A stretch of 64,000 nucleotides of DNA from Candidatus Omnitrophota bacterium (lineage in GTDB: Bacteria > Omnitrophota > Gorgyraeia > Zapsychrales > Fredricksoniimonadaceae), in contig JBGAJA010000004.1 of NCBI GenBank assembly GCA_044225175.1, positions 81,631 through 145,630 of the forward strand, in the 5' to 3' direction. The translations under genes were made by a program, and so were the position numbers. The number at the start of each line of letters is the position of its first letter. Positions within the stretch are counted from its first letter, which is position 1. Positions 1 through 47,356 of the stretch are shown piece after piece. Below the pieces are notes generated by a model that did not search any database, was not told where the DNA came from, and worked only from the letters and a program-made list of their open reading frames with translations.

Positions 1-1584
1 GCTATATGGCTCTAGATCATGAGGTGCTGCCAGCATGGCATGGTTAGCGGTAAATAAATTTTCTGATACTCGTGTTAGTCTTTTTACGCTTTTTGTGCCA
101 CTGATCATGGCTGGGTTTGTAGGACTTGATTTAATCTTATTAACTTTTCTCCATTTTTCTTCAATTTGCATGTAAAACTCTTCTGCCCTGTGTCTTAAAA
201 TATTAGTTCCATTAGCATCTGCCGCGGTTTCCCCAGACGCCATACTTTGTTTTAATTGATCAATTAAGACTTCCACTTCTTCTGAGGGTTTATAAGGAAT
301 AATACTGATGCTTATACGCAATAAACTTGCGAATGCCTTAGAAAGTCCTGTCAACATAGCTGGATTTGATGTTATTTGTAATACTTCTGTTGATCTTAAA
401 GAAGTATTATTGATTAATGCTAAATCAGCTCCTCCTGAAAAATATTTTCTAGAAATAGGCTGTTGGCTAATAGGATCCTGATCTTGCTTAATGTAGTTGT
501 AGACACCTTTTTTAAAGGCGTGGAGGTATTGATTGTAGATCAATTCAATATCCGTAGGGGCAGGTCCCTGTGCCTGCCCTTTTTTTGGATCAACATCATT
601 TTGTTGAGGGCGGCCACGGGCAGCCGCCCCTACGTATTGGATTCCTGCCGTTTTATTTTTATCCGCATACACCTGCGCCAAAATCGAATCTTTAATCTTC
701 TTCTTGTACCAAGTGGCTAGAATCAAAGAACTATAAACCTGCCTAAGCTGCACAAAATTGGCCCCTTCATTGATCTCCTTAGTCAATTCAGGAATAACAA
801 CCTCCCGTATGATCTGACTGTGCAAAAAGGTGTCAGACACCTTTTTATCAACCCGCCCCTTCAAAAAGGTGTCTGACACCTTTTTGGAGGCTACGTAGTC
901 TTCTTCTAACATCACTTTCAGCCTGGATTCCACTACATAGGCTGTTCCGGCCTTTGCATTCTCATAGACTACGGCTTTCTCGGGGACTATCCATACCTTG
1001 TTGAAAGTATTGACTGGGATATTGGTTGTTCCATACCTTTTGGCGGATTCTTCGTAGATTCTCTTCCAAAACTTACGGCCAATCTCTTCTTCTGGATACA
1101 TAAGGCTGGCTGTGATCTGTTTGAGCATGTAGTCCTGGGCCAAAAGGTCGCGGCCCATCTCGGTTTGGCCAAAGCTTTCGGGGACTATGCGGTTTTTTTC
1201 ATAGGGACTTAGATTCACCCATAGGTCGGCTTCTGGGGTGGTTAAAGAGGCCAAAAAGTACTTGATTAGACGGTTGGACTCTTCCTTCAATTTATGTGCA
1301 TCAGCGACGGAACGTGACCCTTGATCTAGGATAAAATCGAACATAAAAGGATTATCTGGATGGACCTTGATTCCTTTGAGCAAAGGAGGGTTCACAGGGG
1401 CGCTTAGATGCACCCTACCCCCAGATTTGGGCAAACGCAGCTGCTGAGCATAGGCTGGCAATGGGCCAATGGTATTAATTAAAAAAATGATGACCATCAG
1501 CCAAAGGCTGATCCGCCTTTGGCGGAAAAAGGCAAAAACAATCCCCAGGCACAAAGCCCTTCTTAACTTTACAATCTTAAACAT
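1..1584 (-). CDS. Giant modular secreted protein, paralog P1, N-terminal part; the gene continues beyond the window start
   Basis: Hand translation of the minus strand from ATG 1582-1584 (in-frame TAA four codons upstream) stays open to position 1. It has a signal-peptide-like N-terminus and clear homology to the N-terminal ~330 aa of the 3589-aa protein (LWVNLSPYEK, NTFNKVWI, KKVSDTF x2, RKYFSGG). It is missing from the ORF track only because no stop lies inside the window. Confidence 0.7.
   Translation of the reverse strand, partial: MFKIVKLRRALCLGIVFAFFRQRRISLWLMVIIFLINTIGPLPAYAQQLRLPKSGGRVHLSAPVNPPLLKGIKVHPDNPFMFDFILDQGSRSVADAHKLKEESNRLIKYFLASLTTPEADLWVNLSPYEKNRIVPESFGQTEMGRDLLAQDYMLKQITASLMYPEEEIGRKFWKRIYEESAKRYGTTNIPVNTFNKVWIVPEKAVVYENAKAGTAYVVESRLKVMLEEDYVASKKVSDTFLKGRVDKKVSDTFLHSQIIREVVIPELTKEINEGANFVQLRQVYSSLILATWYKKKIKDSILAQVYADKNKTAGIQYVGAAARGRPQQNDVDPKKGQAQGPAPTDIELIYNQYLHAFKKGVYNYIKQDQDPISQQPISRKYFSGGADLALINNTSLRSTEVLQITSNPAMLTGLSKAFASLLRISISIIPYKPSEEVEVLIDQLKQSMASGETAADANGTNILRHRAEEFYMQIEEKWRKVNKIKSSPTNPAMISGTKSVKRLTRVSENLFTANHAMLAAPHDLEPYS
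552..634. repeat. GC-rich palindromic element with CCGTAGGGG...CCCCTACG termini, inserted in-frame in P1
   Basis: Outer inverted repeat ccgtagggg/cccctacg with two inner hairpins (gggcagg-N8-cctgccc; gggcggc-N8-gccgccc). It is translated as a Gly/Ala/Pro/Arg-rich insert (YVGAAARGRPQQNDVDPKKGQAQGPAPTD) that the other paralogs lack at this position. Confidence 0.6.
824..885. repeat. Pair of 23-bp perfect palindromes AAAAAGGTGTC(A/T)GACACCTTTTT separated by 16 bp, in-frame in P1
   Basis: Copies at 824-846 (centre A) and 863-885 (centre T). Each encodes KKVSDTF on the minus strand. The same pair occurs in P3 and P4. Confidence 0.7.
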
Positions 1585-1630: not shown

Positions 1631-1654
1631 AAAAAGGTGTCTGACACCTTTTTT
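1631..1654. terminator. Palindromic hairpin AAAAAGGTGTCTGACACCTTTTTT immediately downstream of the bolA stop; putative bidirectional intrinsic terminator
   Basis: A-tract / 6-bp GC stem / T-tract. It lies between the convergent 3' ends of P1 and bolA. The same 23-mer occurs at 18501-18526. Confidence 0.45.
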
Positions 1655-20640: not shown

Positions 20641-20643
20641 GGA

Positions 20644-21165: not shown

Positions 21166-21171
21166 AACTTA

Positions 21172-22020
21172 TTAAACTTTTGCCATGGATTGGGCGCGGA
21201 CTAATTTTGCAGATAACATTTCTTTAAAAGGCAGTTTTGCTTTGCCATGACTAATTAAATACAAAGCTTCAAGGCCTAAGCGTCCCATCTCAACTAAAGG
21301 CTGTGTAACTGTAGCTAGAGGAACAGAACTTGTGGCCCTCAAAGGATTATCATCAAATCCACACAGAGACAGATCATTAGGGATACGGATTTTTTTGGTT
21401 TTTGCAACATCCACGACTTCCAAAGCCATAACATCAGAGGCCGCAAAAATAGCTGTCGGACGATTCTTTAACTTCATCAAATCAATCGCAGCCTGACGGG
21501 CTGGGGTTCTTAAAAATCCACCAATCTTAACAAAGCTTTTATCTACTGCAATGTGATGCTTCTTAAGCGCATCGTAATATCCAGCTAAACGAGACTCTCC
21601 TGCTTGAGTAGATAGGTCTCCTGCAATGGTGGCAATTCTCTCATGTCCAAGATTAATAAACTCTTCAGTAACCTTAAAAGCAGCCTCATAGTTATTCACA
21701 TGAATACAATTGATAGGTTCATCAATTTTGTTATTTAACACCAATGAAGGCATGCCTCGCATGATGGCCTTTTTAACTATCTCAAGATCATTATCAATGT
21801 CAGCAAAAAGGATCCCATCAACATTTTTACGATCGAGAAGAGTTGGATCTAACCAAGATTTATGATCGGACCTGTCTGTAATGTGGACTAAGAAGTCTAC
21901 ATTCAAACGACTTGCTGCTAAATTAACGCCTTTGGTGATTTCGCCAGTATAATAGGAATGAAAAATGTCTTCAAAACGAGGTAGAATCAAAACAAAAATA
22001 TGCTTACGTTTGACAGCCAT
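21172..22020 (-). CDS. LacI-type periplasmic-binding-fold (sugar-binding) domain protein without an HTH
   Basis: 282 aa. Similar to the ligand-binding domain of LacI/RbsR regulators and lacks the N-terminal DNA-binding helix. Confidence 0.5.
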   Translation of the reverse strand: MAVKRKHIFVLILPRFEDIFHSYYTGEITKGVNLAASRLNVDFLVHITDRSDHKSWLDPTLLDRKNVDGILFADIDNDLEIVKKAIMRGMPSLVLNNKIDEPINCIHVNNYEAAFKVTEEFINLGHERIATIAGDLSTQAGESRLAGYYDALKKHHIAVDKSFVKIGGFLRTPARQAAIDLMKLKNRPTAIFAASDVMALEVVDVAKTKKIRIPNDLSLCGFDDNPLRATSSVPLATVTQPLVEMGRLGLEALYLISHGKAKLPFKEMLSAKLVRAQSMAKV

Positions 22021-22026
22021 AGGTAC

Positions 22027-22869
22027 TTATTGATCCTCTTTCTCTTTTAAAATTTTCTTTAATTTTTGTATGGTGAGATCTTCGATTTGACGTACTCTTT
22101 CGCGGGATAGATTAAGCTTACGAGCAATTTTAGCTAAGGTATAGTTTTCTCCATCCGTTAACCCATAACGCATTTCAATAATCGTACGTTCTCTAGGCTC
22201 AAGGTCATTTAATAAAGCGCGCGCGCGTTCTTGATTAAAAAACATTTCTAATTGCTCATCAGGGGCAATTAAGCTTTCATCTTCCACAATATCTTTGAAT
22301 TGACCTTCGCTATCATTTCCAATTGGAGCATCAAGGCTCGACATTTTAGCGATAGCTCCATCAAGTTCTTTCACTCGATCGATCGTAACCTTCATTTTCT
22401 TGGCAATTTCAGCAACTGTTGGTTTACGATGCATTTGCTGATGAAGTTTTTCATAGACTTTACGATACTTTAGGATTTCTTCGTTCAAATAGACAGGAAC
22501 ACGGATCATCTTTCCTTGATCAATGATCGCACGAGAAATAGCTTGCTTAATCCACCAAGCCGCATATGTAGAGAAACGAAATCCACGCTCAGGATCGAAT
22601 TTATCGACCCCTCTCATAAGACCTATATTACCTTCTTCAATTAAATCACTGAGTGCAATTCCAAGATTGATATAGCGCTTGGCTATCGAAATGACCAGAC
22701 GCAGATTAGAGCGGATCATTTTTTCGCGAGCAGCTTTATCCCCTTTTAAATAACGGCGGGCTAAATCAACTTCTTCTTCAGGTTTAAGAAGAGGTATATT
22801 CTTGATGTCTTTGAGATATGCTTTAACTGGATCCATGTAGGGCTTGATTATGCCATGCTCAAAGAGCAT
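22027..22869 (-). CDS. RNA polymerase sigma factor, sigma-70 family (regions 2-4 only)
   Basis: Region 2 (NLRLVISIAKRY...FSTYAAWWIKQAI) and region 4 (LSRERVRQIE) motifs. The start was moved from the TTG at 22875 to an ATG. Confidence 0.8.
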   Translation of the reverse strand: MLFEHGIIKPYMDPVKAYLKDIKNIPLLKPEEEVDLARRYLKGDKAAREKMIRSNLRLVISIAKRYINLGIALSDLIEEGNIGLMRGVDKFDPERGFRFSTYAAWWIKQAISRAIIDQGKMIRVPVYLNEEILKYRKVYEKLHQQMHRKPTVAEIAKKMKVTIDRVKELDGAIAKMSSLDAPIGNDSEGQFKDIVEDESLIAPDEQLEMFFNQERARALLNDLEPRERTIIEMRYGLTDGENYTLAKIARKLNLSRERVRQIEDLTIQKLKKILKEKEDQ

Positions 22870-22892
22870 GCGCAACCTTAAATTATTATTTT

Positions 22893-22949
22893 GTAGGGGC
22901 AGGTTCTAAACCTGCCCCTTATAAGGGTGGGTTTGGAACCCACCCCTAC
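22893..22949. repeat. Intergenic palindromic element GTAGGGG...CCCCTAC with two inner hairpins
   Basis: gtagggg-caggttctaaacctg-cccctt / aagggtgggtttggaacccacccctac. Same termini as the in-frame elements. Lies between the ppdK stop and the sigma-factor start. Confidence 0.6.
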
Positions 22950-22954
22950 GATAA

Positions 22955-25744: not shown

Positions 25745-25769
25745 CTTAAACTCTCCTTATTTTGTATTT

Positions 25770-25797
25770 GTACGGGCGGGGTCACCCCGCCCCTACG
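25770..25797. terminator. GC hairpin gggcggggt-c-accccgccc flanked by gtac/ctacg; putative terminator of glyQS
   Basis: Perfect 9-bp arms located immediately after the glyQS stop. The termini resemble the TAGGGG/CCCCTA element family. Confidence 0.5.
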
Positions 25798-27111
25798 TTA
25801 AACCAGATTCTTTAAAATATACTCACGTAGGCCAGCTACAGGAATGCGTTCTTGTTTCATGGTATCTCTGTGACGAACTGTGACTTGATTATCTTCTAAC
25901 GATTGGACGTCCACGGTCACGCAGAAAAATGTTCCTACTTCATCTTGACGGCGGTAAAGTTTCCCTATCGCAGCGGAGTCATCGTACACACAAACAATAT
26001 CTTTTTGAAGTTCATTTTTTAATTTTTTTGCTAAAGCGACAATTCCTTCGTTCTTTTTCAAGAGTGGAAGAACAGCAACTTTGATTGGACAAAGTTTTGG
26101 ATGAAATTTCATAACCACACGGGTGGCTTCATTAACAACTTCTTCATGATACGCATCAACTAAGAATGCCAAAGTTCCTCTGTCACATCCACCAGAAGGC
26201 TCAATAACATAAGGATAAAACTCTTCGTTGGTCACAGGATCTTTGTATTGCAAATTAGCTCCTGAAAATTGAGCATGCTGTTTCAAATCATAATCGCCAC
26301 GATTAGCAATTCCCTCAAGTTCAGACCAGCCAAAGGGGAACTTGTACTCTACGTCGGTACATCCAGCAGCATAATGAGCCAATTCATCCTTACCATGTTC
26401 TCTTAATTGTAAATTCTCTTTCTTGATACCTAAATCTGAATACCATTGGAATCGAGCTTGAATCCATTCTTGATACTTCCCTGCAGCTTGTTCTGGACGA
26501 CAGAAGTATTCAATTTCCATTTGTTCAAATTCACGGGTACGAAATGTAAAGTTTCCTGGAGTGATTTCATTACGAAATGATTTACCGATTTGAGCAATAC
26601 CAAAAGGCAATTTACGATGAGTTGCATCCACTACGTTTGGAAAATTCACAAAGATGCCTTGCGCTGTTTCAGGACGCAAGTAAGTGACCGAAGAAGAGTC
26701 TTCCATGGCACCTAAAGACGTTTTAAGCATTAAATTGAACGCACGAGGATCTGAAAAAGTATTGTTACCGCACTGAGGACACTTATTATTCTTGATATGA
26801 TCTGGACGAAGGCGTTTGTTACATTTTTTACATTCAACAAGTTGGTCCACGAAATTAGCTACGTGACCGGAGGCCTCCCATGTTTTTGGATGCATGAGGA
26901 TAGAGCAATCTAACCCAACCACATCTTCACGGAAATGAACAACAGCCTGCCACCAGGCATTTTTGACATTGCGTTTAAGCTCAGCACCCAAAGGACCATA
27001 GTCCCAGGCCCCACCTAAACCACCATATATTTCGGAAGATTGGAAAATAAAGCCGCGTCTTTTGCAGAGGGCCACTACCTTTTCCATTAAATCGGGATTG
27101 CTCATGTACAA
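25798..27111 (-). CDS. glyQS: Glycyl-tRNA synthetase, alpha2 (class II homodimeric) type
   Basis: 437 aa with an N-terminus (SSEIYGGLGGAWDYGPLG) and motifs typical of alpha2-type GlyRS. Confidence 0.9.
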   Translation of the reverse strand: MYMSNPDLMEKVVALCKRRGFIFQSSEIYGGLGGAWDYGPLGAELKRNVKNAWWQAVVHFREDVVGLDCSILMHPKTWEASGHVANFVDQLVECKKCNKRLRPDHIKNNKCPQCGNNTFSDPRAFNLMLKTSLGAMEDSSSVTYLRPETAQGIFVNFPNVVDATHRKLPFGIAQIGKSFRNEITPGNFTFRTREFEQMEIEYFCRPEQAAGKYQEWIQARFQWYSDLGIKKENLQLREHGKDELAHYAAGCTDVEYKFPFGWSELEGIANRGDYDLKQHAQFSGANLQYKDPVTNEEFYPYVIEPSGGCDRGTLAFLVDAYHEEVVNEATRVVMKFHPKLCPIKVAVLPLLKKNEGIVALAKKLKNELQKDIVCVYDDSAAIGKLYRRQDEVGTFFCVTVDVQSLEDNQVTVRHRDTMKQERIPVAGLREYILKNLV

Positions 27112-27196
27112 CGTTCTTTCTATTGATTGTCAAACAGAAGGCGGTATTTTAGCAAAAGAAAAACAAAAAGCAATACTTGATTAAAATTCGACACAT

Positions 27197-28312
27197 TCAA
27201 TTTTGCGATACAAAATCCGGCAGCGGTATGGGGGTTATGGTGAGGATATATGGAACTAGGCCGGTTAAATGGGTTAATTCTGCAGGAAGTTGTACATCTC
27301 CTACCTGAGGCATTTGACCCTGTTCTTTGATCTCTGTTTTCAATAAATCTGGGTTTAGATCAATACCTCCCAAGTCTTTATTCTTGGAAACCTGCGCCTG
27401 ATCTGGCGTTGAGCTACCCACATTCAGCTCTAGGGCCGTAATGATTCTTTCTAATCTCTCTTTTCGCAATTGCAATTGTTTCAATGCCTTGTTATCTAGT
27501 TTGGCTTGCGACCCTGCCTCAGACATGTCTTGTTCTATGCGCTCGATGTTTTCTATTACCTCTAACCTCTGCCCTTCGTAAGCAATCAACTTCTCTAATC
27601 TTTCTTTCTCAACTTGGAGTTGATGGGGTTGCTTTTGTAATGCTTCATTTTCAATTGCGTTAACTTTTTGCACTGGCTTAAATATTGTCCAAAGCTTGCT
27701 CTTCTGTCCGCTCAAATATACTGTACGAATTCGACCATCGGCTTGTTCATATGCAGAAGAAATCCAATCATCATGTTCAAGCCTTTCAATAATGGTGTAG
27801 TTTCCCTCCGCTTGTGCTTCCCAAATATAGGCAATAGTATCGCTTACCGTTATTATTCGACCATCCGAAAGTTCTTTTGCTGATCCTACCCTTTCAGGAT
27901 GTTCTAATGGTTTGGTAGCCTCCACCCATTGGACACCTACCTTTTTCCAAATTCTGGCCGTTTGATCTCTGCCTGCTGTCAAAATTCTTCCATCTGATAA
28001 TGCTACTGCATATTTGATTAATTTGGTCGATTCTTGTTTGATGTCCGTAGGGGCATGATTTATCATGCCCTTTAATTGGGTTTGATGAATCAAACCCCTA
28101 CGGTTAGGGTTTTCATCTCCCGCATCCATCACAAAATCAAACTCAAAAGGCCGATTCGCATGCACCTTAAGGCCCTTCAACATAGGCACATTGCTGGCCA
28201 TCGCAACCTCGTAGGTTCGTAAGGGCAGGTTCCCCTGGGCCTGGGCTGGGATTGGGCCTAGACCGGTTATCAAAAAGCTCACCAATGTTAAAATTGAGAA
28301 TGGTTTTTTCAT
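27197..28312 (-). CDS. Modular secreted protein paralog P2 (371 aa): shared N-domain, short DGRI/WD-like repeats, coiled coil, shared C-terminal tail
   Basis: The first ~86 aa are identical to the 36300-36590 ORF. The C-terminal DLGGIDLNPD...PLPDFV tail is shared with P3 and P4. Its start overlaps the P3 stop (ATGA). Confidence 0.7.
   Translation of the reverse strand: MKKPFSILTLVSFLITGLGPIPAQAQGNLPLRTYEVAMASNVPMLKGLKVHANRPFEFDFVMDAGDENPNRRGLIHQTQLKGMINHAPTDIKQESTKLIKYAVALSDGRILTAGRDQTARIWKKVGVQWVEATKPLEHPERVGSAKELSDGRIITVSDTIAYIWEAQAEGNYTIIERLEHDDWISSAYEQADGRIRTVYLSGQKSKLWTIFKPVQKVNAIENEALQKQPHQLQVEKERLEKLIAYEGQRLEVIENIERIEQDMSEAGSQAKLDNKALKQLQLRKERLERIITALELNVGSSTPDQAQVSKNKDLGGIDLNPDLLKTEIKEQGQMPQVGDVQLPAELTHLTGLVPYILTITPIPLPDFVSQN
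28045..28103. repeat. In-frame 59-bp palindromic element CCGTAGGGG-(two hairpins)-CCCCTACGG in the P2 N-domain
   Basis: Inner palindromes catgatttatcatg and gggtttgatgaatcaaaccc. Encodes ...NRRGLIHQTQLKGMINH.... The homologous position in P1 is ~16 aa shorter and lacks it. Confidence 0.6.
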
Positions 28313-31300
28313 GATTTATGGTTTTGCACGAAATCAGGTAACGGCATTGGAGTAATCTTGATAATAAAAGGAACCAGACCAGTTAAATTGCTTAATCCTT
28401 CAGGAAGTTGTGCATCCCCTACCTGAGGCATTTGGCCCTCGGTTTTGATGTCTGTTTTTAATAAATCTGGATTAAGGTCGATACCTCCTAAGTCTCTTGA
28501 GGATTGAGCGGAATCTGTAGGATGTTTTTCAAGTTGTGCTTCAAGGGCCTTAATAAGTTTCTCTAATCTATTTTTTCGTAACTGTAATTGATCAATCTTA
28601 AATTGCTGTGGCAAATCTACTAGATCTTGTCCTAAAACCCCAACATCATCACCCAAAATGAGATAACGCGAATCTTTGCCCTGGTGATAGGCCAATATAT
28701 GTTTGATCATCTGACCGCTATAGGAATCTGTTAAATTCTTAATGAGATCATCACCTAAAGGCTTTTGTCCTTTCTTAAAAGCAAACGCACGCGTGCTGCC
28801 CTTATCATCATGTAAGCTCAAATAAAATGGCGGATCTGACTCCGCAAAATTCAAAACAGAATAAACAGGATAAACTGAATTGATTTTCTGTATTTCATTG
28901 GTCAAGGAATCATTATTTAGCTCAGATCCATCTGCTTTATAACTAAACACGCTACCCTTTCCAATACTCATGAATACTTGTTCTCCATTGTTTTCTCTGA
29001 TGATCACATCATAAATATGATTAGACTTATGTTTGTTGGAGATAGCCAGAGCTAATGGGACTTCATAAATTCTTCTACCGCCCTCCGTATAAACCGCCAC
29101 AAAACCCCTCTCTCCCGCAAATAAAAACCTTCTTTGTCCCTCAATTTGATACTCTAAGACTGTATAAATATCAAATGGCGTAGGAAGTTCTCTTATGGCT
29201 TTAGCCATAGGGTGGTCCACTTCTCTGCCGTCTTTCCCAAACACATAAACTTGTCTCATTTGACCTACAGCCATAAACGATTCTTCCCCTCTCGAACTAA
29301 AGAATGGAAGCACTTTGAATATGGTTAAATCTCCGAATTTACTTTTGATGGCTTGGACTAAAGGATCATTAGGGACTCTTGTTCCATCTTCCTCAAACGT
29401 AGACATCTTCTGACCGGGCGAATATCCCTTAGTTACAATGCGGACACGACCGTCTCTCTTATAGGAAAAAGAATAATGAATTCCATTTATTCCATGGAAA
29501 AATTTGATGGCTTTAGCTAACTTGGAAGCATTGTCTGTTGGAGGTAAAGCATGGATGGGTCTATAGCTTGGCTTGTGGTCAGCGACTAATCCGGCCACAT
29601 GCCATGATGTGACATGACCTCTTTCATCCACAACCTCTAAATGAGTTCCATCCGCAGATATAGATACAGAAATAAAATTATTCGCAGAATGCTTTGATCC
29701 TATCTCTGTTCTTTCTTCCCATACACCCTGATCATTCTTAGTCCATATCCAAATCTTACCCTGACTGCCCACTATGACAAAATAACTACCATCTGGTGAA
29801 ACAGCCACATCATTTCGTCCCCCTGGGGTTAAGCGAACATTCTGCTGAGTTCCTTTGCTATCCCAAATACTAACCTCACGATTACCCATAGCCACAAAAC
29901 TTCCATCAGGAAAAACATCCAATGCTTTATAGCCACTGTAGTAATAAGATTGATTCTTGCCCCATTCCCCATCCTTATTCTTCCAAACATTGATCGAATG
30001 CCTCTCAAGAGTTAAAAAAGATTGACCATCCGCAGAAATCACAAGATCTAATGTGCAATCCTCATGGCCTATCAAGGCTTCTTTGCTTGCTATAACAGAG
30101 GGCTCCCATTGATTACGTTCGTTCTTTTTCCATATTTGAATAAACTCATCTGAGGTAGGAGGAACACCATTATTGCCTGATTCAGGCCTGGTATGTAAAG
30201 TCAAAAAATAGTCCCCTTGAGGAGATATGACAATCTTTTGTAAAAGCCCCACCTCACCCCTTGGATCAAAAGAACGCCTGTTTCCCCATGCCCAACCTCT
30301 TTGACCATCGGCATTATAAATTGTAATGCTTCCGTTCGGATCACTTACATCTTGATTGACCATGAAGCTCCCATCTCGAGCAATGGCCTTTATTCTGGAA
30401 TCTACCTGGGATTTTTCTTGAGGCGAGATCTCATGAAGTGGCAATAACCTTAGAATTTGATTCTTTGCTTCCATTGATTTTAAAGCATCCTCGCGCTCTT
30501 GAGAAATACGGGCCAACTCATCTTCATGGGCAATAATTCTTTCAAGCCATTTTTTCCTTTTTTCTAATACAACAAGGCTGCTTTGCCCTACTCGAGGTCC
30601 TCCCACGTCCCAAATTCTCTCTCGTCCCTTGCCATCTACCGTTACAAAGTAAGTCCCATCAGGAGATATGGCAACGGCTGCTGCGACATCTTCAACCCCT
30701 GGATCTGCAACAGTCCCTAAAAATCTTCCTTCCCCCCATTGACCAGCAGCATTTTTTGTTGATATAAACACCTCTCCTTGAGATCCTACGATGACACAAT
30801 AATTGCCATCTGGAGAAATAGCCACATCCTGGAGGTCCATAAAACGATCTTTGACAATCTGGCCAGAGGATACCCATTCATCATTTGACCTTTTGTTTTC
30901 CCAGACGTGGATAAGACCAGACATCTTATCTGTGACCACAAAACTCTTTCCATCAGGAGCTATAGCGACAGATAGTGAATTGTTTAAAGCTGCAGATATC
31001 TGCTGCTTCCATTGAGGTTCACCTTTAGCATTATAAACTTGCACAGCACTGTTGTTATGGACGACCACAAAAAAACTGCTGTCAGGAGCAATGGCTACAT
31101 CCGTTATTTTATATGAATAAGAACCTACAGAAGTCTCTTGCTTCCACTCATTATTTTTCTGAGATTTTCTCCAAATTTGTACTTTCCCAGATTCAGTTGT
31201 TACAACAAAATAACTTCCATCTGGAGCGATTGCTACGTCAGTCAATTCCCAAGGAGAGTCGTTTAATAGTCTGCGACCTGGCACCCATTTATTCTGACTA

Positions 31301-34300: not shown

Positions 34301-36093
34301 TCCCAGCTTTTGTCTTTGTTCTGACGCCATATTTTAGTTGTCCTGTCATAGCTGGTAGACAATATTCTTCCATCTGGCAGCATCTGAGCTGAATGGACAA
34401 TGTCTTCATGTCCTTTTAATGTAGATTCAACTGACCACTGGTTGAGAGAATCTTCTTTCCAAATCTTGAGTGTCGCATCTTTACATGTTGTTAATATTCT
34501 TCCATCTTTCAGCATTTGCGCAGAGGTGACCCAGTTTGGATGCTCTAAATTAGCAGCCACATCCCATTGATCCGCTGAAGATTCTTTCCATATTTTTGCT
34601 GAGCTATCATCACTTGCTGTTAACAGTCTTCCATCCGGTAACATTTGGATGGAATTAATACCGTACTCATGTCCCTTAGGATTAGTATTCTTTGATTCCA
34701 AAGTAGAAGTAATCTGCCATTTGTTCTTCGATTTCTGCATCCATATTTTGATCTTTCCATCATGACTTCCCATCACAATTCGTCCATCGGGTAACATTTG
34801 GGCCAAACTAATTGAGGTTTCTTCCTTCTTTGGCCATGATAATGTTACGAGAACTTCTAATTGATCCTTTGATGTCCTACGCCATATCTTGACTGTGTTA
34901 TCAATACTTGCCGTTAATATTCGTCCATCTTCTAATATTTGATTTGAAAAAATAAGGTCTAAATGCCCTTTAGGATTTTCATCTTTATCAAAAGAGAACT
35001 TCATCTCTTCATGGGTCCACTGATCTATGGGCAGTATTTCTCTGGGGGCATTAGAATTCTCAATTTTTTGACTAGATTTAATTCCACGTCTCAGTTGCTT
35101 AATTCGAGCGATCACTTGCCCAAGTTCTTCTTTATGCTTGCTCTTAGGAGTAACCGCTGCTTTAAGCTCATCTTGCCTTACCCTTAATCTTTCAATCTCA
35201 CTAGTAAACAAATCAATCCCTGCCTGGAATGGATTATTCTCACCCCCCCCTAATTCTTCTAAATGAGACCTTTGTTCCTCAAGAAGCTTAATCACTCGTC
35301 CTATGTCTTCTACTGTATCCTTATGGCCCTGAACAATTCCCTCAATTGTACTCTTTACATCTGCCAGCGGGTCGTTGGCTGTATTCATGGCTGCATCTTT
35401 AAACTGGCTCTTGATGGCAAATAAATGTGACTTTTCAAAGGATTGCACTGCCCGATCTTGAACATCTTTCGGAACACTTGACCAGTCTTTGTACACCATA
35501 GCCTGGTCTAATGCTGCCTGCGGATTGAATCCTCCAGAGAAGTATTTACGGGCCACCATCTGGCGTTTACCCTGAGCGTCAGTCGAAGGGTCTTCCTTGA
35601 TATAGTTAAACACCCCCTGCTTGTAGGACTTCAAATAATCCTGGAATATCTTCTCTTCTTCCTTAGGATCTTTCTTCTGTAACCCTTGGGTCTTGCCTTT
35701 GTTCACATAGGCTTTAGATAGAACACTCTTTTTTAGCTCTTTCTTGTACCAAGCTGCCAAGACCATGGAATTGACAATCTGGCGTAAGGGGGCAAAGTCT
35801 TTGGATTGGTTGACTGCTTTCTCTAACTCAGGAATCACGATCTCACGGACAATTTGACTACATAAAAAGGTGTCAGACACCTTTTTATCCATCTGCCCGC
35901 TCAAAAGGTGTCTGACACCTTTTTGTGGGCTAAAATAGTCTTCTTCCATCATTACCTTCAATTTCACATCCAACACCCATACTGTGTTGTCTTTCATCAA
36001 AAGTGATGCCTGATCCGGCAATATCCATACCTTGTTAAACGTATTAATCGGCACATTGGTATTCCCATACTTCTCTTGTACCTTCCCATACAC
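28309..36093 (-). CDS. Giant WD40 / beta-propeller repeat protein paralog P3 (2594-aa ORF); the N-terminal domain is separated by frameshifts
   Basis: At least three runs of WD40-type repeats (xDGRILTAS..IKIW; GH..V.S..YSPDGRYIVT...RIWD) and a second repeat type (SPDGSYFVV). Internal duplication of a ~90-aa helical module. Shared C-terminal tail. The ORF begins inside the conserved N-domain. Confidence 0.7.
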   Translation of the reverse strand: MYGKVQEKYGNTNVPINTFNKVWILPDQASLLMKDNTVWVLDVKLKVMMEEDYFSPQKGVRHLLSGQMDKKVSDTFLCSQIVREIVIPELEKAVNQSKDFAPLRQIVNSMVLAAWYKKELKKSVLSKAYVNKGKTQGLQKKDPKEEEKIFQDYLKSYKQGVFNYIKEDPSTDAQGKRQMVARKYFSGGFNPQAALDQAMVYKDWSSVPKDVQDRAVQSFEKSHLFAIKSQFKDAAMNTANDPLADVKSTIEGIVQGHKDTVEDIGRVIKLLEEQRSHLEELGGGENNPFQAGIDLFTSEIERLRVRQDELKAAVTPKSKHKEELGQVIARIKQLRRGIKSSQKIENSNAPREILPIDQWTHEEMKFSFDKDENPKGHLDLIFSNQILEDGRILTASIDNTVKIWRRTSKDQLEVLVTLSWPKKEETSISLAQMLPDGRIVMGSHDGKIKIWMQKSKNKWQITSTLESKNTNPKGHEYGINSIQMLPDGRLLTASDDSSAKIWKESSADQWDVAANLEHPNWVTSAQMLKDGRILTTCKDATLKIWKEDSLNQWSVESTLKGHEDIVHSAQMLPDGRILSTSYDRTTKIWRQNKDKSWEVEATLEEKDRYSLGHNGTVVAAHMLEDGRIFTASEDRTVKIWKKISRRKWEVEVTAEVVGLKSAQILSEGKIFIVDAFGSEIWNIFKPIERQESSSKEKQTSQEQMEILPEDQIKPIELLPDEKYITDSMVLGPKWSRAVTVRKGGIIKIWDVPNLKELHTLRDYISWGTVFSLDETRIATMNNSQVIIWDVDKGTKIRTLENITNFKAMSLSSDGTKIVIATLDKIRIWDVNTGVELKRLLGYKTSLSSKVAFSPDGTQVAATIKMSTGEAVRIWDVDTGRREVTLEQPNNIYSMAFSPDGNQIATGSDCTLIVWDIIKRKTIRVWNGHSYFVDSVNFSPDGRMLATASKDGTAKIWNIETGEEIKSFSLGDAVNAVIGFSPDGTSVFITTKDHPTTVIRKIFKPLEPQTPDTDVPKDGQDVLQQELSTLEARKKELELLIAKEESLLDGRLLTDDLKGKIITTKIFKPNTAKTGSSDQAMSADPLAEVKSTIEGIVQGHKDTVEDIGRVIKLLEEQRSHLEELGGVENNPFQAGIDFFTSEIERLKARQDELKVKAAFVPESKWKKELEKVIAQINEIMANQGKRGLLELLPDDQRKMIKTLTGHTDFVRSAAYSRDGRYIVTVSDHKTVRIWDAQTGQQIGEPFRVYSGLVMSAVFSPDGRYILTASDDRTATIWDAQTRQPIETLTGHEDYLTSAAYSPNGRYIVTASHDSIVRIWDAQTGQQIGKPLKGHSNGVYTATYSPDGRYIMTASRDGTVRIWDAQTRQQIGEPLIEHDDSVFSSAVYSPDGRYIVTVSFDGPVRIWDAQTRQPIGEPLKGLDKEVVSVVFSPDSRYIVTAGDDGSVRFWDVQTRQQIGKPLTGFPYGVSTAAYSPDGRYIVLSSDDGAARIWEIAKKLLVPEQIKFHELNSKGDGFTAAVAVASDGKFYVSVTQAGKVRISSKEADGTWSTQEEPINTSDREDITAVALSPDGTYFLTTSYKDVGDGTAIGILTLWNKNSQNKWVPGRRLLNDSPWELTDVAIAPDGSYFVVTTESGKVQIWRKSQKNNEWKQETSVGSYSYKITDVAIAPDSSFFVVVHNNSAVQVYNAKGEPQWKQQISAALNNSLSVAIAPDGKSFVVTDKMSGLIHVWENKRSNDEWVSSGQIVKDRFMDLQDVAISPDGNYCVIVGSQGEVFISTKNAAGQWGEGRFLGTVADPGVEDVAAAVAISPDGTYFVTVDGKGRERIWDVGGPRVGQSSLVVLEKRKKWLERIIAHEDELARISQEREDALKSMEAKNQILRLLPLHEISPQEKSQVDSRIKAIARDGSFMVNQDVSDPNGSITIYNADGQRGWAWGNRRSFDPRGEVGLLQKIVISPQGDYFLTLHTRPESGNNGVPPTSDEFIQIWKKNERNQWEPSVIASKEALIGHEDCTLDLVISADGQSFLTLERHSINVWKNKDGEWGKNQSYYYSGYKALDVFPDGSFVAMGNREVSIWDSKGTQQNVRLTPGGRNDVAVSPDGSYFVIVGSQGKIWIWTKNDQGVWEERTEIGSKHSANNFISVSISADGTHLEVVDERGHVTSWHVAGLVADHKPSYRPIHALPPTDNASKLAKAIKFFHGINGIHYSFSYKRDGRVRIVTKGYSPGQKMSTFEEDGTRVPNDPLVQAIKSKFGDLTIFKVLPFFSSRGEESFMAVGQMRQVYVFGKDGREVDHPMAKAIRELPTPFDIYTVLEYQIEGQRRFLFAGERGFVAVYTEGGRRIYEVPLALAISNKHKSNHIYDVIIRENNGEQVFMSIGKGSVFSYKADGSELNNDSLTNEIQKINSVYPVYSVLNFAESDPPFYLSLHDDKGSTRAFAFKKGQKPLGDDLIKNLTDSYSGQMIKHILAYHQGKDSRYLILGDDVGVLGQDLVDLPQQFKIDQLQLRKNRLEKLIKALEAQLEKHPTDSAQSSRDLGGIDLNPDLLKTDIKTEGQMPQVGDAQLPEGLSNLTGLVPFIIKITPMPLPDFVQNHKS
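35864..35924. repeat. In-frame pair of AAAAAGGTGTC(A/T)GACACCTTTTT palindromes in P3
   Basis: Copies at 35864-35886 and 35903-35924. Encodes ...KGVRHLLSGQMDKKVSDTFL... Confidence 0.7.
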
Positions 36094-36300
36094 CCTCTTC
36101 CAGAATTCTTTCCTCTATCTTTTCTTCCGGATACAGCAAGGATGCCATGATCTGTTTTAAGATATAGTCCTGATCTAACAGCTTCATCCCCATCACTGTT
36201 TCCCAAAATCCTCTGAGATCATTCGGTCTTTTTCATAGGGACTTAGGTTCACCCATAGGTGGTCATTGGGTATGGCTAAGGTTGAGAGGAAGTATTTGAT
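36093..36300 (-). pseudogene. Frameshifted junction between the P3 N-domain ORF and the main ORF
   Basis: Aligned with the P4 segment 46840-47180, this stretch shows +1 (cc-t-c vs ccc), -1 (ttt vs tttt), -1 (ggg vs gggg, inside the CCGTAGGGG terminus) and -3 differences. All lie in or next to homopolymers. Confidence 0.5.
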
Positions 36301-36590
36301 TAGTTTGGTCGATTCTTGTTTGATGTCCGTAGGGTATGATTTATCATGCCCTTTAATTGGGTTTGATGAATCAAACCCCTACGGTTAGGGTTTTCATCCG
36401 CATCCATCACAAAATCAAACTCAAAAGGCCGATTCGCATGCACCTTAAGGCCCTTCAACATAGGCACATTGCTGGCCATCGCAACCTCGTAGGTTCGTAA
36501 GGGCAGGTTCCCCTGGGCCTGGGCTGGGATTGGGCCTAGACCGGTTATCAAAAAGCTCACCAATGTTAAAATTGAGAATGGTTTTTTCAT
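36300..36590 (-). CDS. N-terminal domain fragment of P3 (96-aa ORF with signal peptide)
   Basis: Identical at the nucleotide level to the 5' end of P2 (27197-28312). Its start overlaps the P4 stop (ATGA). Confidence 0.55.
   Translation of the reverse strand: MKKPFSILTLVSFLITGLGPIPAQAQGNLPLRTYEVAMASNVPMLKGLKVHANRPFEFDFVMDADENPNRRGLIHQTQLKGMINHTLRTSNKNRPN
36327..36384. repeat. In-frame palindromic element copy in P3 (left terminus CCGTAGGG, one G short)
   Basis: Same element as at 28045-28103 and 47086-47144. Confidence 0.6.
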
Positions 36591-45500: not shown

Positions 45501-47356
45501 ATCGCTTCATCAGTTAATCCATACTTTTTTCTTAAATTTTTTAAAAGAAAAGCTTGTCTTTCTACAATACTCCAAGGATCCTCTTCTGAGGCCTCAATAG
45601 ATTCCCAATATTCTTTATCCACATACCAAGCAACTTTCATCCCGGGATTGTTGTGCTGAATCCAAGTTAAATGTTCTTCAATCTCCTTCTTAAAACCAAA
45701 ATGAAACATACTGATGTTTTTATTTAAAATAATAATTATATTTTTATCATCAATAAGGGTCCTAAACAGATAACCATACTCCCTTAATCGAGCCTCAAGT
45801 AAGCTGATAAAATGAAATTCTATTTTCACATTAGACGTTCTATCTTGAGTGGGTGCGGTTGTGATCGCAACAGATGGTGTTTGTGTTGCTGAATTTGATG
45901 AAGTTAATGGAATAGAAGGAAGACTTTTCTTCTTCTCTTCTAAAACTTTGATGACCTCACCAAGCCTCTCAATGACCCATTGAAAATTATTGGAACTTTG
46001 TTCCTCCAACGCTTGAAAACTATCCTTAGATTGTTTTAACTCTTGAATTGCTTCTTCCACCTTCTCTTGAGAATCTAATGGCTTATCTAAAATGTTCTTG
46101 ATGGTTTGTTCTACATCTTGTCTGTCTTTCAAAGTGGGACTATGGGTCATGGCAGGATCAATGGATTTGAATTCACTTCGTACTGCAAATAAATGTGACT
46201 TCTCAAAGGATTGCATGGCTCGATCTTGAATCTCTTTAGGAACACTTGACCAGTCTTTGTACACCATAGCCTGGTCTAATGCTGCCTGTGGATTGAATCC
46301 TCCTGAGAAATATTTTCGTGCTACCATCTGACCTGTGATCTCGTCTTTTTCCTCCTTAATATAATTGAACACGCCCTTCTTATAGGTCTTAAGATAGTTT
46401 TGGAATATCTTCTCTTCTTCCTTAGGATCTTTCTTCTGTAACCCTTGGGTCTTGCCTTTGTTCACATAGGCTTTAGATAGAACACTCTTTTTTAGCTCTT
46501 TCTTGTACCAAGCTGCCAAGACCATGGAATTGACAATCTGGCGTAAGGGGGCAAAGTCTTTGGATTGGTTGACTGCTTTCTCTAACTCAGGAATCACGAT
46601 CTCACGGACAATTTGACTACATAAAAAGGTGTCAGACACCTTTTTATCCATCTGCCCGCTCAAAAAGGTGTCTGACACCTTTTTGTGGGCTAAATAGTCT
46701 TCTTCCATCATTACCTTCAATTTCACATCCAACACCCATACTGTGTTGTCTTTCATCAAAAGTGATGCCTGATCCGGCAATATCCATACCTTGTTAAACG
46801 TATTAATCGGCACATTGGTATTCCCATACTTCTCTTGTACCTTCCCATACACCCTCTTCCAGAATTCTTTCCCTATCTTTTCTTCCGGATACAGCAAGGA
46901 TGCCATGATCTGTTTTAAGATATAGTCCTGATCTAACAGCTTCATCCCCATCACTGTTTTCCCAAAATCCTCTGAGATCATTCGGTCTTTTTCATAGGGA
47001 GATAGGTTCACCCATAGGTGGTCATTGGGTATGGCTAAGGTTGAGAGGAAGTATTTGATTAGTTTGGTCGATTCTTGTTTGATGTCCGTAGGGGTATGAT
47101 TTATCATGCCCTTTAATTGGGTTTGATGAATCAAACCCCTACGGTTAGGGTTTTCATCTCCCGCATCCATCACAAAATCAAACTCAAAAGGCCGATTCGC
47201 ATGCACCTTAAGGCCCTTCAACATAGGCACATTGCCGGCCATCGCAACCTCGTAGGTTCGTAAGGGCAGGTTCCCCTGGGCATAAGTGGGCATGGGGCCT
47301 ATGATAGAGCTAACGATGAAGCAAACTAATATAGTTAAACTTAATGGGGTTTTCAT
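36587..47356 (-). CDS. Giant modular secreted protein paralog P4 (3589 aa): N-domain, helical region with a Gly-X-Y tract, VWA, two AAA+ (MoxR/AAA_5-like) modules, WD40 propeller, shared C-terminal tail
   Basis: Signal peptide. HELFH at ~nt 44850. 13 consecutive G-X-Y triplets (GEQGQQ...GQS) at ~43205-43330. VWA MIDAS motif (VSFVMDRSGSMG) at ~41950. Degenerate P-loop (LIGETGLGKDE) at ~40715 and Walker A (FVGKPGTGKST) at ~39525. WD40 repeats at 36850-37800. C-terminal ...ITPMPLPDFVQNHKS. Confidence 0.8.
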   Translation of the reverse strand: MKTPLSLTILVCFIVSSIIGPMPTYAQGNLPLRTYEVAMAGNVPMLKGLKVHANRPFEFDFVMDAGDENPNRRGLIHQTQLKGMINHTPTDIKQESTKLIKYFLSTLAIPNDHLWVNLSPYEKDRMISEDFGKTVMGMKLLDQDYILKQIMASLLYPEEKIGKEFWKRVYGKVQEKYGNTNVPINTFNKVWILPDQASLLMKDNTVWVLDVKLKVMMEEDYLAHKKVSDTFLSGQMDKKVSDTFLCSQIVREIVIPELEKAVNQSKDFAPLRQIVNSMVLAAWYKKELKKSVLSKAYVNKGKTQGLQKKDPKEEEKIFQNYLKTYKKGVFNYIKEEKDEITGQMVARKYFSGGFNPQAALDQAMVYKDWSSVPKEIQDRAMQSFEKSHLFAVRSEFKSIDPAMTHSPTLKDRQDVEQTIKNILDKPLDSQEKVEEAIQELKQSKDSFQALEEQSSNNFQWVIERLGEVIKVLEEKKKSLPSIPLTSSNSATQTPSVAITTAPTQDRTSNVKIEFHFISLLEARLREYGYLFRTLIDDKNIIIILNKNISMFHFGFKKEIEEHLTWIQHNNPGMKVAWYVDKEYWESIEASEEDPWSIVERQAFLLKNLRKKYGLTDEAMSSPPSKDYERASLQEVMKDYFTLKQDMVIALDNSDEPAFHVAYQSMLNVVGPLSQKTTEQGFESALKAAHQVYAQGKIDRLFFLGEIRNPHEFESKFMALYEEMLVVGNKGLSKETRGIVDQIIDETVEELFDGTAQEVWKKRLREDVKSYYFGDLLEPLFKIGPFDQWRESAADLLVNMNSVIGMSGGLFDPLSKKVYVKDKATEWFIRLALKHELFHYFANQGEIHIPFKWEDITHAVSVLEIERFVKGDEGLFEKKLIEFAAMTQEPAAVDLFKRGRQIAEQGETGFMINPGTSDRQAGYFSVEYLLSEARAVYEEQGQSADLLLNSYAAQRAVGILIAGVFSEMKAKDPDIKPLRLLKDFFQVLYERYALSEDPKVGHGIAKITDDILKFAGTSAGQQVELKGTPRGLWRYQSKSDYVGELHYVPTDIYPRLYDGTSRNDLEGQIEAARERGLGLAFIAISQVKFGLRGLMKNLPDSSKGNSITQTLWDTLLFPKSVRLGIDVTSKSILSGQADQSLQGASLWVGRVLRDRYDLGDTKAHQLVAKALLSSLPLHLQYLDSLMYRRFHYDPQEQSMKDPRVNNPALETAVVRTMGSLDDAKDYGWLKLLFHPKYIQDAQIVKAIGEKIWPVYLELFEKAKKTEERWRAYQRKMKEEKKEALRREFDQMTEEQKQQLEDFWNSLDEKTKEAIRKAVQEQMDEAQEEFGQSGSQGQPTPQDQEGEGEQGQQGQQGQQGQQGQQGQSGKQGQAGQQGQPGASGQQGQSQGPGKPQGSRGSQGRYIPGQGQKQGGSHDIKDVEKTMKDLAGQLSDLNKKIEEMTQGLEGMKGKVGDVNASGIESKPLDDQRKTADDLKGKAKDIQSKAQNLLNQAREASSASSNQKDATEGMRQNLPSPEEGKEASDSSKEFDGKIQDLLNQIHDLQEKANALKKGTDQLSDKLSEPKPDGPQVQGQVRQIERTVGEIREQVDQTSSKTKDASNKLSDLQSKIDSLKQSLEQSSKKSQNQPSQSSSSNSQPASEDQPQQHKPATKDSQELSMPDKVNIPDVDDFLNSQRPTTPPVRPITVKPFDPLAAARAEEEMIKNRTGLTMDEWKEYNKWLEIEITNKGKTITVGKLIQRFTKALEVLTLPSVDITFERDLEQGAILANVVAAISGGPAFGKWKPNEPLPVKVSFVMDRSGSMGVDNERGIFPIQMARIIYFVMMSAILNHNEVRQSRGYAPIEFEVGLFVDAPGETMISHETSRKQNFRKERVLYDVWKKLNAGGGTHYASNLFKYIERLLSSQDSVSSGEKSIRILFALTDEDVDEDQKGKVHTTLQQAEDEGAHVYIIPLGNMNQVRASQLQNKEYPHRVIAPASFGDLPNAVMDSFANSIRAPAPGVSWLDSVDAAMTSDPQVQFGEMKPLGDYKHFFTQTRNGYEFLVFKRPNEEALYWQRGLGGSNVPTTTIPMTASTEDKMIKILDALYNSNHIDMSYSADHRYGLRQIEDGQIELLQKDDNHGGYTPIKVFDSVSIDIPKDDIAKELPISELQEGQWNIYKINSEKVFAYNHNDGEVIIFKKSSQWEVESRLRFNNETASDSWDGIAVRLIGETGLGKDEILMATAHLLNEEVYVMSGDGDLDVEDLESGPQSVGAEEAGTSGVIPSGLNEVMHKGGWFVIREAHKIRQSVLNSLKSHITGKTHKWPIVRDGITRFETLPNHPRARLLASVNRIRSGITGTSFEANAPMQDRFKDVEFYWDWPEDEVAWQLEYALNLARQKGIHKDDWENFRQKLQNDITELVRIAAELRLSFAGYSAQQQAVIFANRESWNLLDSNYLVQKMAQDPQIMDLFKNGPASGIAQNLKRPPSPRVIKNIITHFINFEKDWEYRPLSVIQYYYNFKAEEDRNNTYQGALHAFKAWRIDSPNKPPLEFKESSFKVDGDYLIITPSGASAEFWDPIRVPLHPKAEIRSGRLPSEIKEWIESAKNSLKLYVYLQGHGLGKHAIFVGKPGTGKSTMTFAIQKLLNAPGILKAEINEETRRYHLTFSRALKSFRTRFFPGILPSIMDDGHGHGQILNMDESNQGRPSVLSLLNEYAERNMIHDPTKESQVTFGQPGSGIIHTINRPGSGERIKSFPDDFIERHMVIDFEDMPPQEMVYYLNEAAVGKSIVDSLQFAVNPHLIGEPKLDAGGKPKKYPDGEIEYSGIIGIAQEISRRQIKDPTFFPRNKEISIRNLKSFVKAIVRQFNYRQSKGIISQKILLDLLLENLTLEGDAANLIRWRSNIVQVFIDQGLFSKDPTKNALEDFLKGEGVLVQNLPVIREPQTGFEDIDRVLRFLQTNTMGNIDRQIETLQQRLEILFDEMTVQQNVTIQNNAPAGSNLTLPTLVTIGEKIKRFNMARDAYQVLGVILDKRCDITLPPAHTQENRARIDNLRAIIRTAIIAKKGWPSKFLEEGADWILKLRLDEMVINKTTGNQMTRLQSFEQMLYGLQEYGVRTFYLKDSAMNALRDNARDVKDIIEGILKRPQDTIKDVQGIIDLLEVQKGHLETLAGGDVHVFSEAIALLNEEIGKLKTRKELLATASVPVVSGRKIDDKFKPVKVDAKEQLEILPKDQIGAPKKLGNYRGFVRSAAFSPNGKQVATAHEDGKVRIWSVRTGKLLRVFEGHEKNYQVFSVAFSPDGQRIISGSQDNTARIWSVKTGKVIKKLNSPKPVMRVAFSPDGRLALAASWDNVIVWDSKTRQKISTSISAVERAPLEAFAFSPDASKVAVPSDDGNIDLLDVTTGVKIMTYVGNKREVLAVAFSPDGRRIAIASDDHIVKVWNVSTGKVLKNINVQSDESARFNITLIFSTDGSKILTSTEDGRMKVYDVITGNQIMTFHAGTDYNFVFIAFHPDGKSFIGTTVGLAAIYQLFKSSAPSDRAMLKESDLGGIDLNPDVLKVDVKNQGQTPDLGNSNIPLEFKEIIGLVPIIKDITPMPLPDFVQNHKS
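46623..46684. repeat. In-frame pair of AAAAAGGTGTC(A/T)GACACCTTTTT palindromes in P4
   Basis: Copies at 46623-46645 and 46662-46684. Encodes AHKKVSDTFLSGQMDKKVSDTFL. Confidence 0.7.
47086..47144. repeat. In-frame 59-bp CCGTAGGGG...CCCCTACGG palindromic element in the P4 N-domain
   Basis: Identical to the P2 copy apart from one base (catgattt vs tatgattt). Confidence 0.6.

Follow-up and report, generated by a model that had tools for sequence, protein, structure and literature searches.

We analysed a 64-kb window (64,000 nt of contig JBGAJA010000004.1 from a Candidatus Omnitrophota bacterium, with positions counted from its first letter) in which short palindromic elements lie both just behind housekeeping genes and inside the genes of large proteins. 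Every host gene is on the minus strand. Four of them, P1 to P4, are paralogues with an N-terminal domain of the phylum (the N-domain), and their elements are found in connecting loops of this domain. We consider it likely that these elements are GTAG-tagged repeats of the repetitive extragenic palindrome (REP) type, mostly in head-to-head dimers resembling REPINs (REP doublets forming hairpins), which have spread to sites behind stop codons and to the N-domain loops. The four paralogues are as follows.

1..1584, minus strand: P1, the 5' part of a large-protein gene that leaves the window, with a signal peptide and the Omnitrophota N-domain
27197..28312, minus strand: P2, a chimeric short paralogue of 371 aa
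28309..36590, minus strand: P3, a giant paralogue whose main open reading frame (ORF) has 2594 aa
36587..47356, minus strand: P4, an intact giant paralogue of 3589 aa

P2 joins the first ~100 aa of the N-domain to unrelated sequence and to a conserved C-terminal tail, and with only 371 aa it is not the giant protein for which the first-pass annotation of this DNA had taken it. The REP-type elements, most of whose units in the window are intragenic, are placed as follows.

552..634, minus strand: two inverted GTAGGGG units (554-579 and 608-633, spacer 28 nt) in loop 4 of P1, encoding the peptide YVGAAARGRPQQNDVDPKKGQAQGPAPT
22893..22949, minus strand: intergenic head-to-head dimer, 5 nt past the ppdK stop and upstream of the sigma-70 gene
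25770..25797, minus strand: single REP unit (reverse complement of GTAGGGGCGGGGTGACCCCGCCC), 1 nt past the glyQS stop and upstream of ppdK
28045..28103, minus strand: head-to-head REP dimer in N-domain loop 1 of P2, with the in-frame peptide RRGLIHQTQLKGMINHAPT; left unit GTAGGGGCATGATTTATCATGCCC, spacer TTTAATT, right unit the reverse complement of GTAGGGGTTTGATTCATCAAACCC
36327..36384, minus strand: paralogous dimer copy in the degraded 5' end of P3, with a 1-nt deletion in the terminal G/C run that shifts the frame
47086..47144, minus strand: paralogous dimer copy in loop 1 of P4, in frame, with one C-to-T change in the stem

Anatomy of the palindromic elements

The ~59-bp element at 28045-28103 had been described as an outer stem enclosing two inner hairpins, and this description was borne out. 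The element reads CCGTAGGGG-CATGATTTATCATGCCC-TTTAATT-GGGTTTGATGAATCAAA-CCCCTACGG and has exact CGTAGGGG...CCCCTACG termini. Folded as single-stranded DNA, the region 28040-28108 forms the outer stem plus two inner hairpins at -19 kcal/mol (z -7.4), and across the elements the same architecture was obtained, or a single hairpin in the case of the singlet, with z values from -3.8 to -7.9. The window contains 10 copies of the CGTAGGGG octamer, where 0.44 would be expected, and exact CGTAGGGG...CCCCTACG pairs are located at 553-634, 28046-28102 and 47087-47143, where shuffled sequences gave an expectation of 0.

A search of the window for GTAG directly abutting a perfect stem of at least 7 bp returned nine units, all nine of which begin with GTAGGGG, compared with a shuffle mean of 0.8. 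The control tetramers placed before perfect hairpins gave 0-3 units each, and GTAG alone was in excess among those tested. A GTAG REP was taken to be a GTAG adjoining a short palindrome with a stem of 5-13 bp and a loop of 2-20 nt; the units described here carry this tag, and their stems, loops and total lengths are 7-10 bp, 3-8 nt and 23-26 bp, respectively. The dimers of 55-83 bp are inverted pairs with GTAG outermost, which is the layout of REPINs. The spacer is 6-7 nt in the dimers 22893-22949 and 28045-28103 and in the two paralogous copies of the latter, compared with 28 nt at 552-634. Heterodimers, in which the stems of the two units differ, are also present. A search of the window against Rfam at gathering thresholds returned no family.

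P2 and P4 read the loop-1 dimer in frame as NPNRRGLIHQTQLKGMINH(A/T)PTD, and the in-frame loop elements encode linkers of 19-28 aa. The earlier claim that this dimer is in frame in P2, P3 and P4 holds for P2 and P4 and fails for P3. The 5' end of the P3 N-domain (36093-36590) is split over at least three reading frames by frameshifts, and it has lost 1 nt within the G-run of the element and 3 nt just upstream of the element. This 5' end is either a pseudogenised paralogue or a mis-assembly of a region that is repeated in P2 and P4.

Alignment of the 5' regions showed that the dimer lies in a ~230-bp near-identical block common to P2, P3 and P4. P2 and P3 also match upstream of this block, and P3 and P4 match in the downstream N-domain. 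The three copies are thus one insertion that duplication or gene conversion has propagated, and not the three separate insertions first proposed; the window therefore holds four independent sites rather than six. A REP-like half site, GTAAGGGCAGGTTCCCCTG, was observed at 28219-28237, 36497-36515 and 47260-47278, with the coding-strand reading ...QGNLPLR...; it forms the exact start of the common block, and P4 diverges from P2 and P3 upstream of it.

In P1, loop 1 is 16 aa shorter than in P2 and P4 (19 vs 35 aa), as had been noted. The family member reported for P1 at 552-634 is likewise present, following ...YADKNKTAGIQY; however, it occupies loop 4 and not the equivalent position, and it is made of two single, widely spaced units.

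The two intergenic copies are present at 22893-22949 and 25770-25797 as first described. Calling them terminators is a description of position only: a terminator consensus scan of 18000-29000 called neither of them, there is no T-run after either, and their tails are TTATAA, TACAAAAT and GTACAAAT. Studies of E. coli have assigned REPs in the 3' untranslated region (UTR) a role in mRNA 3'-end stability, not in termination (PMC3479197, PMC8266576). For the intergenic copies of the window, we consider a function as 3' mRNA hairpins more probable than one as terminators. The flanks of 28045/28103 and 25770/25797 contain no direct repeat that would mark a target-site duplication, and those of 22893/22949 contain only an AT-rich near-repeat.

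A second palindrome, AAAAAGGTGTC[A/T]GACACCTTTTT (also written AAAAAGGTGTCNGACACCTTTTT), has a stem of 9-12 bp, a loop of 3 nt and eight copies in the window. It too is used in both ways: loop 3 of P1, P3 and P4 holds in-frame pairs of it, and further copies stand at gene ends. The sites are as follows.

824..886, minus strand: pair in P1 loop 3 (824-846 and 862-886), each copy read as KKVSDTFL
35862..35923, minus strand: KKVSDTFL pair in P3 loop 3 (35862-35888 and 35903-35923)
46621..46685, minus strand: KKVSDTFL pair in P4 loop 3 (46621-46647 and 46661-46685)
1631..1653, no strand assigned: KKVSDTFL-type palindrome in the intergenic space between a bolA-like gene and P1
18501..18523, no strand assigned: KKVSDTFL-type palindrome at the 3' end of a TPR gene, its last base overlapping the TPR stop at 18523

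The KKVSDTFL peptide is also encoded in P0001 and P0005 of a related genome, and the palindrome was found in none of the 160 loci searched. Elsewhere in the window, secondary BLAST matches of the short-read contig L163 revealed a ~190-bp internal direct repeat (~84-85% identity) at 17242-17530, within the ORF 16930-18036.

Empty sites in relatives and the loop hot spot of the N-domain

Homologues of the N-terminal ~350 aa all belong to Candidatus Omnitrophota/Omnitrophica, and the best is ~50% identical to P4. The N-domain follows a signal peptide at the head of proteins of ~350 to >3500 aa, with many paralogues per genome. It has no Pfam match, and a Foldseek search of its model against PDB gave no significant fold match. 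The large proteins share a C-terminal tail (DLGGIDLNPD...GLVP.I..ITP.PLPDF), and WD40-like and other modules stand between this tail and the N-domain. P4 also contains a long Q/G-rich low-complexity tract.

The connectors called loops 1, 3 and 4 have modal lengths of 18, ~22 and 14 aa, respectively, in most of ~200 homologues. Loop 1 is 35 aa long in P2 and P4 compared with the basal 18, and loop 4 of P1 is 37 aa compared with the basal 14. Because P4 loop 1 and P1 loop 4 are length outliers against the basal loops, these differences represent insertion and not deletion. In an AlphaFold2 model of the P4 N-domain (mean predicted local distance difference test score, pLDDT, 72.5), the element-encoded peptide is placed in a coil between the strand 55-64 and the helix 89-108, with pLDDT <50 at residues 74-84. 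The insert is thus predicted to occupy a loop position that is compatible with the fold.

The intergenic sites were compared in 80 glyQS-centred metagenomic loci, in which the synteny glyQS-ppdK-sigma70-(lacI-like)-PRTase is kept, also in distant Omnitrophota. The closest relatives, at 85-70% GlyRS identity, have a short glyQS-ppdK spacer that lacks structure; their ppdK-sigma spacer either lacks structure as well or contains unrelated palindromes. Since the sites are empty in the closest relatives, the intergenic copies of the window are lineage-specific insertions. Presence and absence thus differ between lineages as expected of mobile elements, both in the intergenic spacers and in the loop-4 dimers of P1 and P0001, and the comparison with relatives that the first-pass annotation had proposed came out in its favour at the intergenic sites and in the basal loops of most homologues. 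As a separate observation, the ppdK-sigma spacer of the loci L082-L098 is a recurrent landing place of unrelated palindromes, for example nested hairpins of ~90 nt in L090 and GGGGACGGTTCTCTAAAGAGAACCGTCCCC in L098.

Very similar units were found elsewhere in the Omnitrophota, in several contexts and in other MAGs (metagenome-assembled genomes). In L037, loops 1 and 3 contain dimers; the first of them, GTAGGGGACGGTTCTAAACCGTCCC-TTAATA-...CCCGCCCCTAC, is similar to the dimer 22893-22949 of the window, and L037 also has an intergenic singlet. Further near-identical GTAG units are present in L021, L041, L107 and L117. The intergenic copies lie just past ORFs, at 1 nt (glyQS), 5 nt (ppdK) and 17 nt (L037) after the stop codons.

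The single close relative of P1 is P0001, with 85% identity, and a scan of genome contigs, which did not include the source genome, returned only paralogues no more than 67% identical to P1. At the protein level, the identity of P1 and P0001 is ~100% over residues ~45-292; immediately past the loop-4 REP site it falls to ~76%, and beyond the N-domain the proteins are unrelated. They have different REP dimers in loop 4, and the loop-4 peptide of P0001, VGVGSKPTQDRAGLEPAPT, fits the GTTCCAAAC/TTGGAAC dimer type of 22893-22949. This suggests a mosaic junction at the loop-4 element.

The loops were then compared across the phylum in a sample of 83 N-domains, comprising 80 genome loci with the domain and the window genes, where a gain of at least 5 aa counted as an expansion. 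Of the 83 N-domains, 50 had one or more expanded loops and 24 had at least two, and ~40% of the N-domains had no expanded palindromic loop. The expanded loops that folded with z < -2 numbered 21 of 28, 20 of 32 and 11 of 23 for loops 1, 3 and 4, respectively; basal loops folded like shuffled sequence. The insert families are many, and their peptides include VIPAKAGIQ, VIARSEATKQS, VSLRGA..., LSSPNALIGDP, VILSAAKDL, VETQNFASL and MPTRGHV...NVKAPQGN. The density of perfect hairpins with a stem of at least 9 bp was as follows.

N-domain: 0.243 hairpins per kb
Remainder of the N-domain ORFs: 0.028 per kb (Fisher p = 2e-7)
Other long ORFs of the same loci: 0.059 per kb
ORFs of the glyQS-centred loci: 0.085 per kb
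Intergenic DNA of the N-domain loci: 0.24 per kb

The N-domain therefore has ~9 times the hairpin density of the remainder of the same ORFs. In the window itself, 11 such hairpins fall in 3.8 kb of N-domains, compared with 7 in 55.8 kb of all other ORFs. These results show a phylum-wide, loop-specific hot spot in the N-domain of the large and giant proteins of Omnitrophota, and this is the new part of the present study.

One family of the loops was also followed on its own. The palindrome GTCATTCCCGCGAAAGCGGGAATCCA has 20 in-frame copies over the three loops in the records L001-L080 and P0001-P0181, some of which may overlap. It is always read as VIPAKAGIQ/H, that is, in one of five open frames in 20 of 20 cases and never in the other four combinations of frame and orientation.

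Likeness to known repeat families

The Omnitrophota are usually placed near the PVC (Planctomycetes-Verrucomicrobia-Chlamydiae) group. Di Nocera et al. 2013 (PMC3733652) showed that GTAG REPs form head-to-head dimers and that, in co-directional arrays, they prefer positions <20 bp downstream of ORFs. The same survey catalogued intragenic REPs, more than half of which were dimers or groups encoding 20-30 aa, and the most, about 70 entries, were found in the Verrucomicrobium Opitutus terrae, which belongs to the PVC superphylum (PMC3733652). Because intragenic GTAG REPs have already been published, the elements of the window are of a known kind, and it is the hot spot that is new. A full-text literature search yielded no paper on palindromic elements in Omnitrophota.

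The likeness to the GTAG REPs, REPINs and bacterial interspersed mosaic elements (BIMEs) of Opitutus terrae, Pseudomonas, Stenotrophomonas and Thauera extends to many details (PMC3733652, PMC2817692). In both cases GTAG abuts a stem of 7-10 bp, and head-to-head dimers have short spacers and include heterodimers with differing stems. Both occur a few bases past the stops of co-directional genes, are lineage-specific, and form in-frame dimers of about 20-30 aa, sometimes with two inserts per ORF. The differences concern host and distribution: the survey did not include Omnitrophota, the units of the window are mainly intragenic, and the inserts cluster in three loops of one paralogous N-domain and are not scattered over unrelated proteins. 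Furthermore, unlike in the catalogued repeats, the conserved tag here extends to GTAGGGG...CCC, and no REP-associated tyrosine transposase (RAYT) has been seen with it so far. The REPs and BIMEs of E. coli, which are served by TnpA_REP (RayT), share the GTAG, the imperfect palindrome, the inverted pairs and the position in the 3' UTR; in contrast to the present elements, they are extragenic, and REPs flank their known cognate RayT gene (PMC3479197, PMC8266576).

The match to Rickettsia palindromic elements (RPEs) put forward by the first-pass annotation stands for behaviour and falls for family. Like RPE-1 to RPE-10 (Ogata et al. 2000, 2002, as given in PMC10969869), the elements are palindromes inserted in frame at surface-compatible sites, orthologues without the insert exist, and intergenic copies occur as well. 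An in-frame ORF insertion that is absent from homologues was found for P2, for P4 loop 1 and for P1 loop 4, the P3 copy being frameshifted. Unlike them, RPEs are about 100-150 bp long, the short RPE-4 and RPE-6 are CGTC-tagged (PMC10969869, PMC3733652), and RPEs occur across many unrelated housekeeping genes of a different host clade. In size and sequence class, the elements of the window, with their GTAG tag, short hairpins and head-to-head dimers, are thus set apart from RPEs by the published descriptions. [quoted passage not shown] The terminal complement of the present elements is 7-9 bp, with no consistent duplication.

Competing explanations and possible route of spread

Several observations weigh against mobile GTAG REPs as the explanation. 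The copy count, 11 units at four independent sites, covers 64 kb of the source genome. The stems vary between copies and yet stay perfectly paired, which is unusual for recent copies of a master element; selection on structure, or repair templated by hairpins, could account for it instead. A loop 3 of 24 aa, compared with ~22 aa in the basal state, houses two palindromes of 23 nt; because several loops are full of palindrome without a gain in length, simple insertion is no explanation there. The variant with AT-rich stems of P2-P4 was in none of the 160 loci searched. No RAYT or transposase domain was found by Pfam in the window (29 ORFs were scanned, covering most of the 35 that have 150 aa or more), and none turned up in 2 Mb of related loci when these were searched by tblastn with an E. 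coli RayT sequence, which is a weak test. One candidate transposase locus, formed by inverted GTAG units around ~400 bp in L114, was rejected as a tandem palindrome array. This array, at 9500-9935 of that unrelated high-GC metagenomic contig, lies just upstream of glyQS and is bounded by inverted GTAGCGCCGCG... units.

The full loops of unchanged length and the fully compensated variation of the stems would be expected if the palindromes arose in place, by hairpin-templated mutation and repair or ectopic patch conversion in hypervariable loops, with GTAGGGG due to convergence or bias; the negative transposase searches in the scanned window ORFs and by the weak tblastn of 2 Mb would agree with this as well. 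We regard such an origin as quite unlikely, because near-identical units and dimers, which share even loop and spacer motifs (GTTCNAAAC, CCTTGTG, TTATAA/TTAATA), reappear in different genomes and in contexts that are unrelated, GTAG alone among the tested tetramers precedes hairpins in excess, and the intergenic sites of relatives are cleanly empty. Membership in or kinship with the RPE families, which would account for the in-frame copies, the insert-free homologues, the predicted loop location and the genic plus intergenic use, is very unlikely. The tags are GTAG, the units and dimers measure 23-26 bp and 55-83 bp, respectively, and the host belongs to the Omnitrophota and not to the Rickettsiales; in addition, RPE-1 is longer, and the fact that RPE-4 and RPE-6 belong to a CGTC-tagged superfamily leaves membership unsupported (PMC3733652, PMC10969869). 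An artefact of assembly or sequencing, with repeats collapsed, is almost certainly not the source of these elements. Logan short-read contigs do break inside the element (the start of L163 is 28051) and beside P1 (the start of L162 is 1575), and the P3 frameshifts could be assembly errors in a repeated region. Against this, independent Logan contigs match the window at 100% identity over the intergenic copies, and equivalent elements occur in dozens of unrelated metagenome-assembled genomes (MAGs) and protein records. The Logan contigs come from the same population (SRR28480385, SRR28480388), match the window at 100% identity and added neither new sequence nor strain variation; since they end within a REP dimer or beside P1, the repeats evidently fragment assemblies.

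The palindromes of the N-domain might also be functional cis elements and not passengers that are tolerated. Recombination or gene conversion between paralogues would be promoted if they formed cruciforms or hairpins in the DNA, and modules would thereby be shuffled or surface proteins diversified; if they formed hairpins in the RNA, ribosomes or RNA polymerase would be made to pause soon after the start of very long genes. We regard this idea as rather unlikely. Several observations speak for it. The enrichment, ~9-fold relative to what is left of these ORFs, is confined to the N-domain, and stems are perfectly paired despite sequence divergence. The identity of P1 and P0001 drops from ~100% before the loop-4 element to ~76% after it, where the dimers differ; the tract common to P2, P3 and P4 begins at a REP-like half site, and in P2 it ends ~33 nt past the dimer. 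The VIPAKAGIQ-type palindrome keeps to one of five open frames in all 20 in-frame cases. However, many unrelated families occupy the loops and about 40% of the domains have none, so no particular element is needed; the coincidences at junctions are two or three anecdotes, and the same units stand at ordinary REP positions behind housekeeping genes. A change-point scan for breakpoints in 109 within-genome paralogue pairs placed optima near the loops; it was confounded by uneven conservation, yielded no clear signal and was left unused. A more specific form, that the three loops are dedicated landing or exchange sites of palindromes whose hairpins mark or create breakpoints for module swapping and diversification, we hold to be unlikely. 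Nevertheless, the loop data, the paired stems, the single frame of VIPAKAGIQ and the mosaic junctions leave room for a role in recombination or diversification.

If the elements are GTAG REPs, as we believe, their units would have spread as non-autonomous single-strand elements, moved in trans by a Y1 enzyme of the RAYT/TnpA_REP type or by recombination. Only events that preserved the frame and brought in no stop, in loops that tolerate them, would have survived. The loop-1 dimer itself arrived once, and the ~230-bp tract then took it into P2, P3 and P4. The conserved flanks of the N-domain would let gene conversion copy inserts between paralogues and so raise their frequency in this domain, and such conversion, together with the tolerance of the loops, would explain a phylum-wide hot spot of three loops. 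The peptides that the elements encode are probably neutral. We also considered microhomology of GTAG/GGGG in D-x-G-D and V-A-G-V codons as the target and rejected it, as GTAG occurs in uninserted loops merely as codon usage allows.

For work on these genomes, the elements matter in that they break short-read assemblies, cause spurious frameshifts and pseudogene calls in giant genes, and inflate the apparent divergence of homologues. With them, the Omnitrophota, an uncultured nanobacterial phylum with giant genes, joins the few lineages in which REP-type palindromes are translated in proteins. If the three loops were indeed dedicated landing sites, they would amount to a palindrome-driven device for diversifying secreted giant proteins, with a strict frame preference in some families. 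The insertion hot spot is sharply defined, comprising three loops of one unannotated, phylum-specific N-domain that have received palindromes of many families recurrently, and it offers a natural system for studying how such elements enter ORFs in frame and whether they drive the mosaicism of paralogues.

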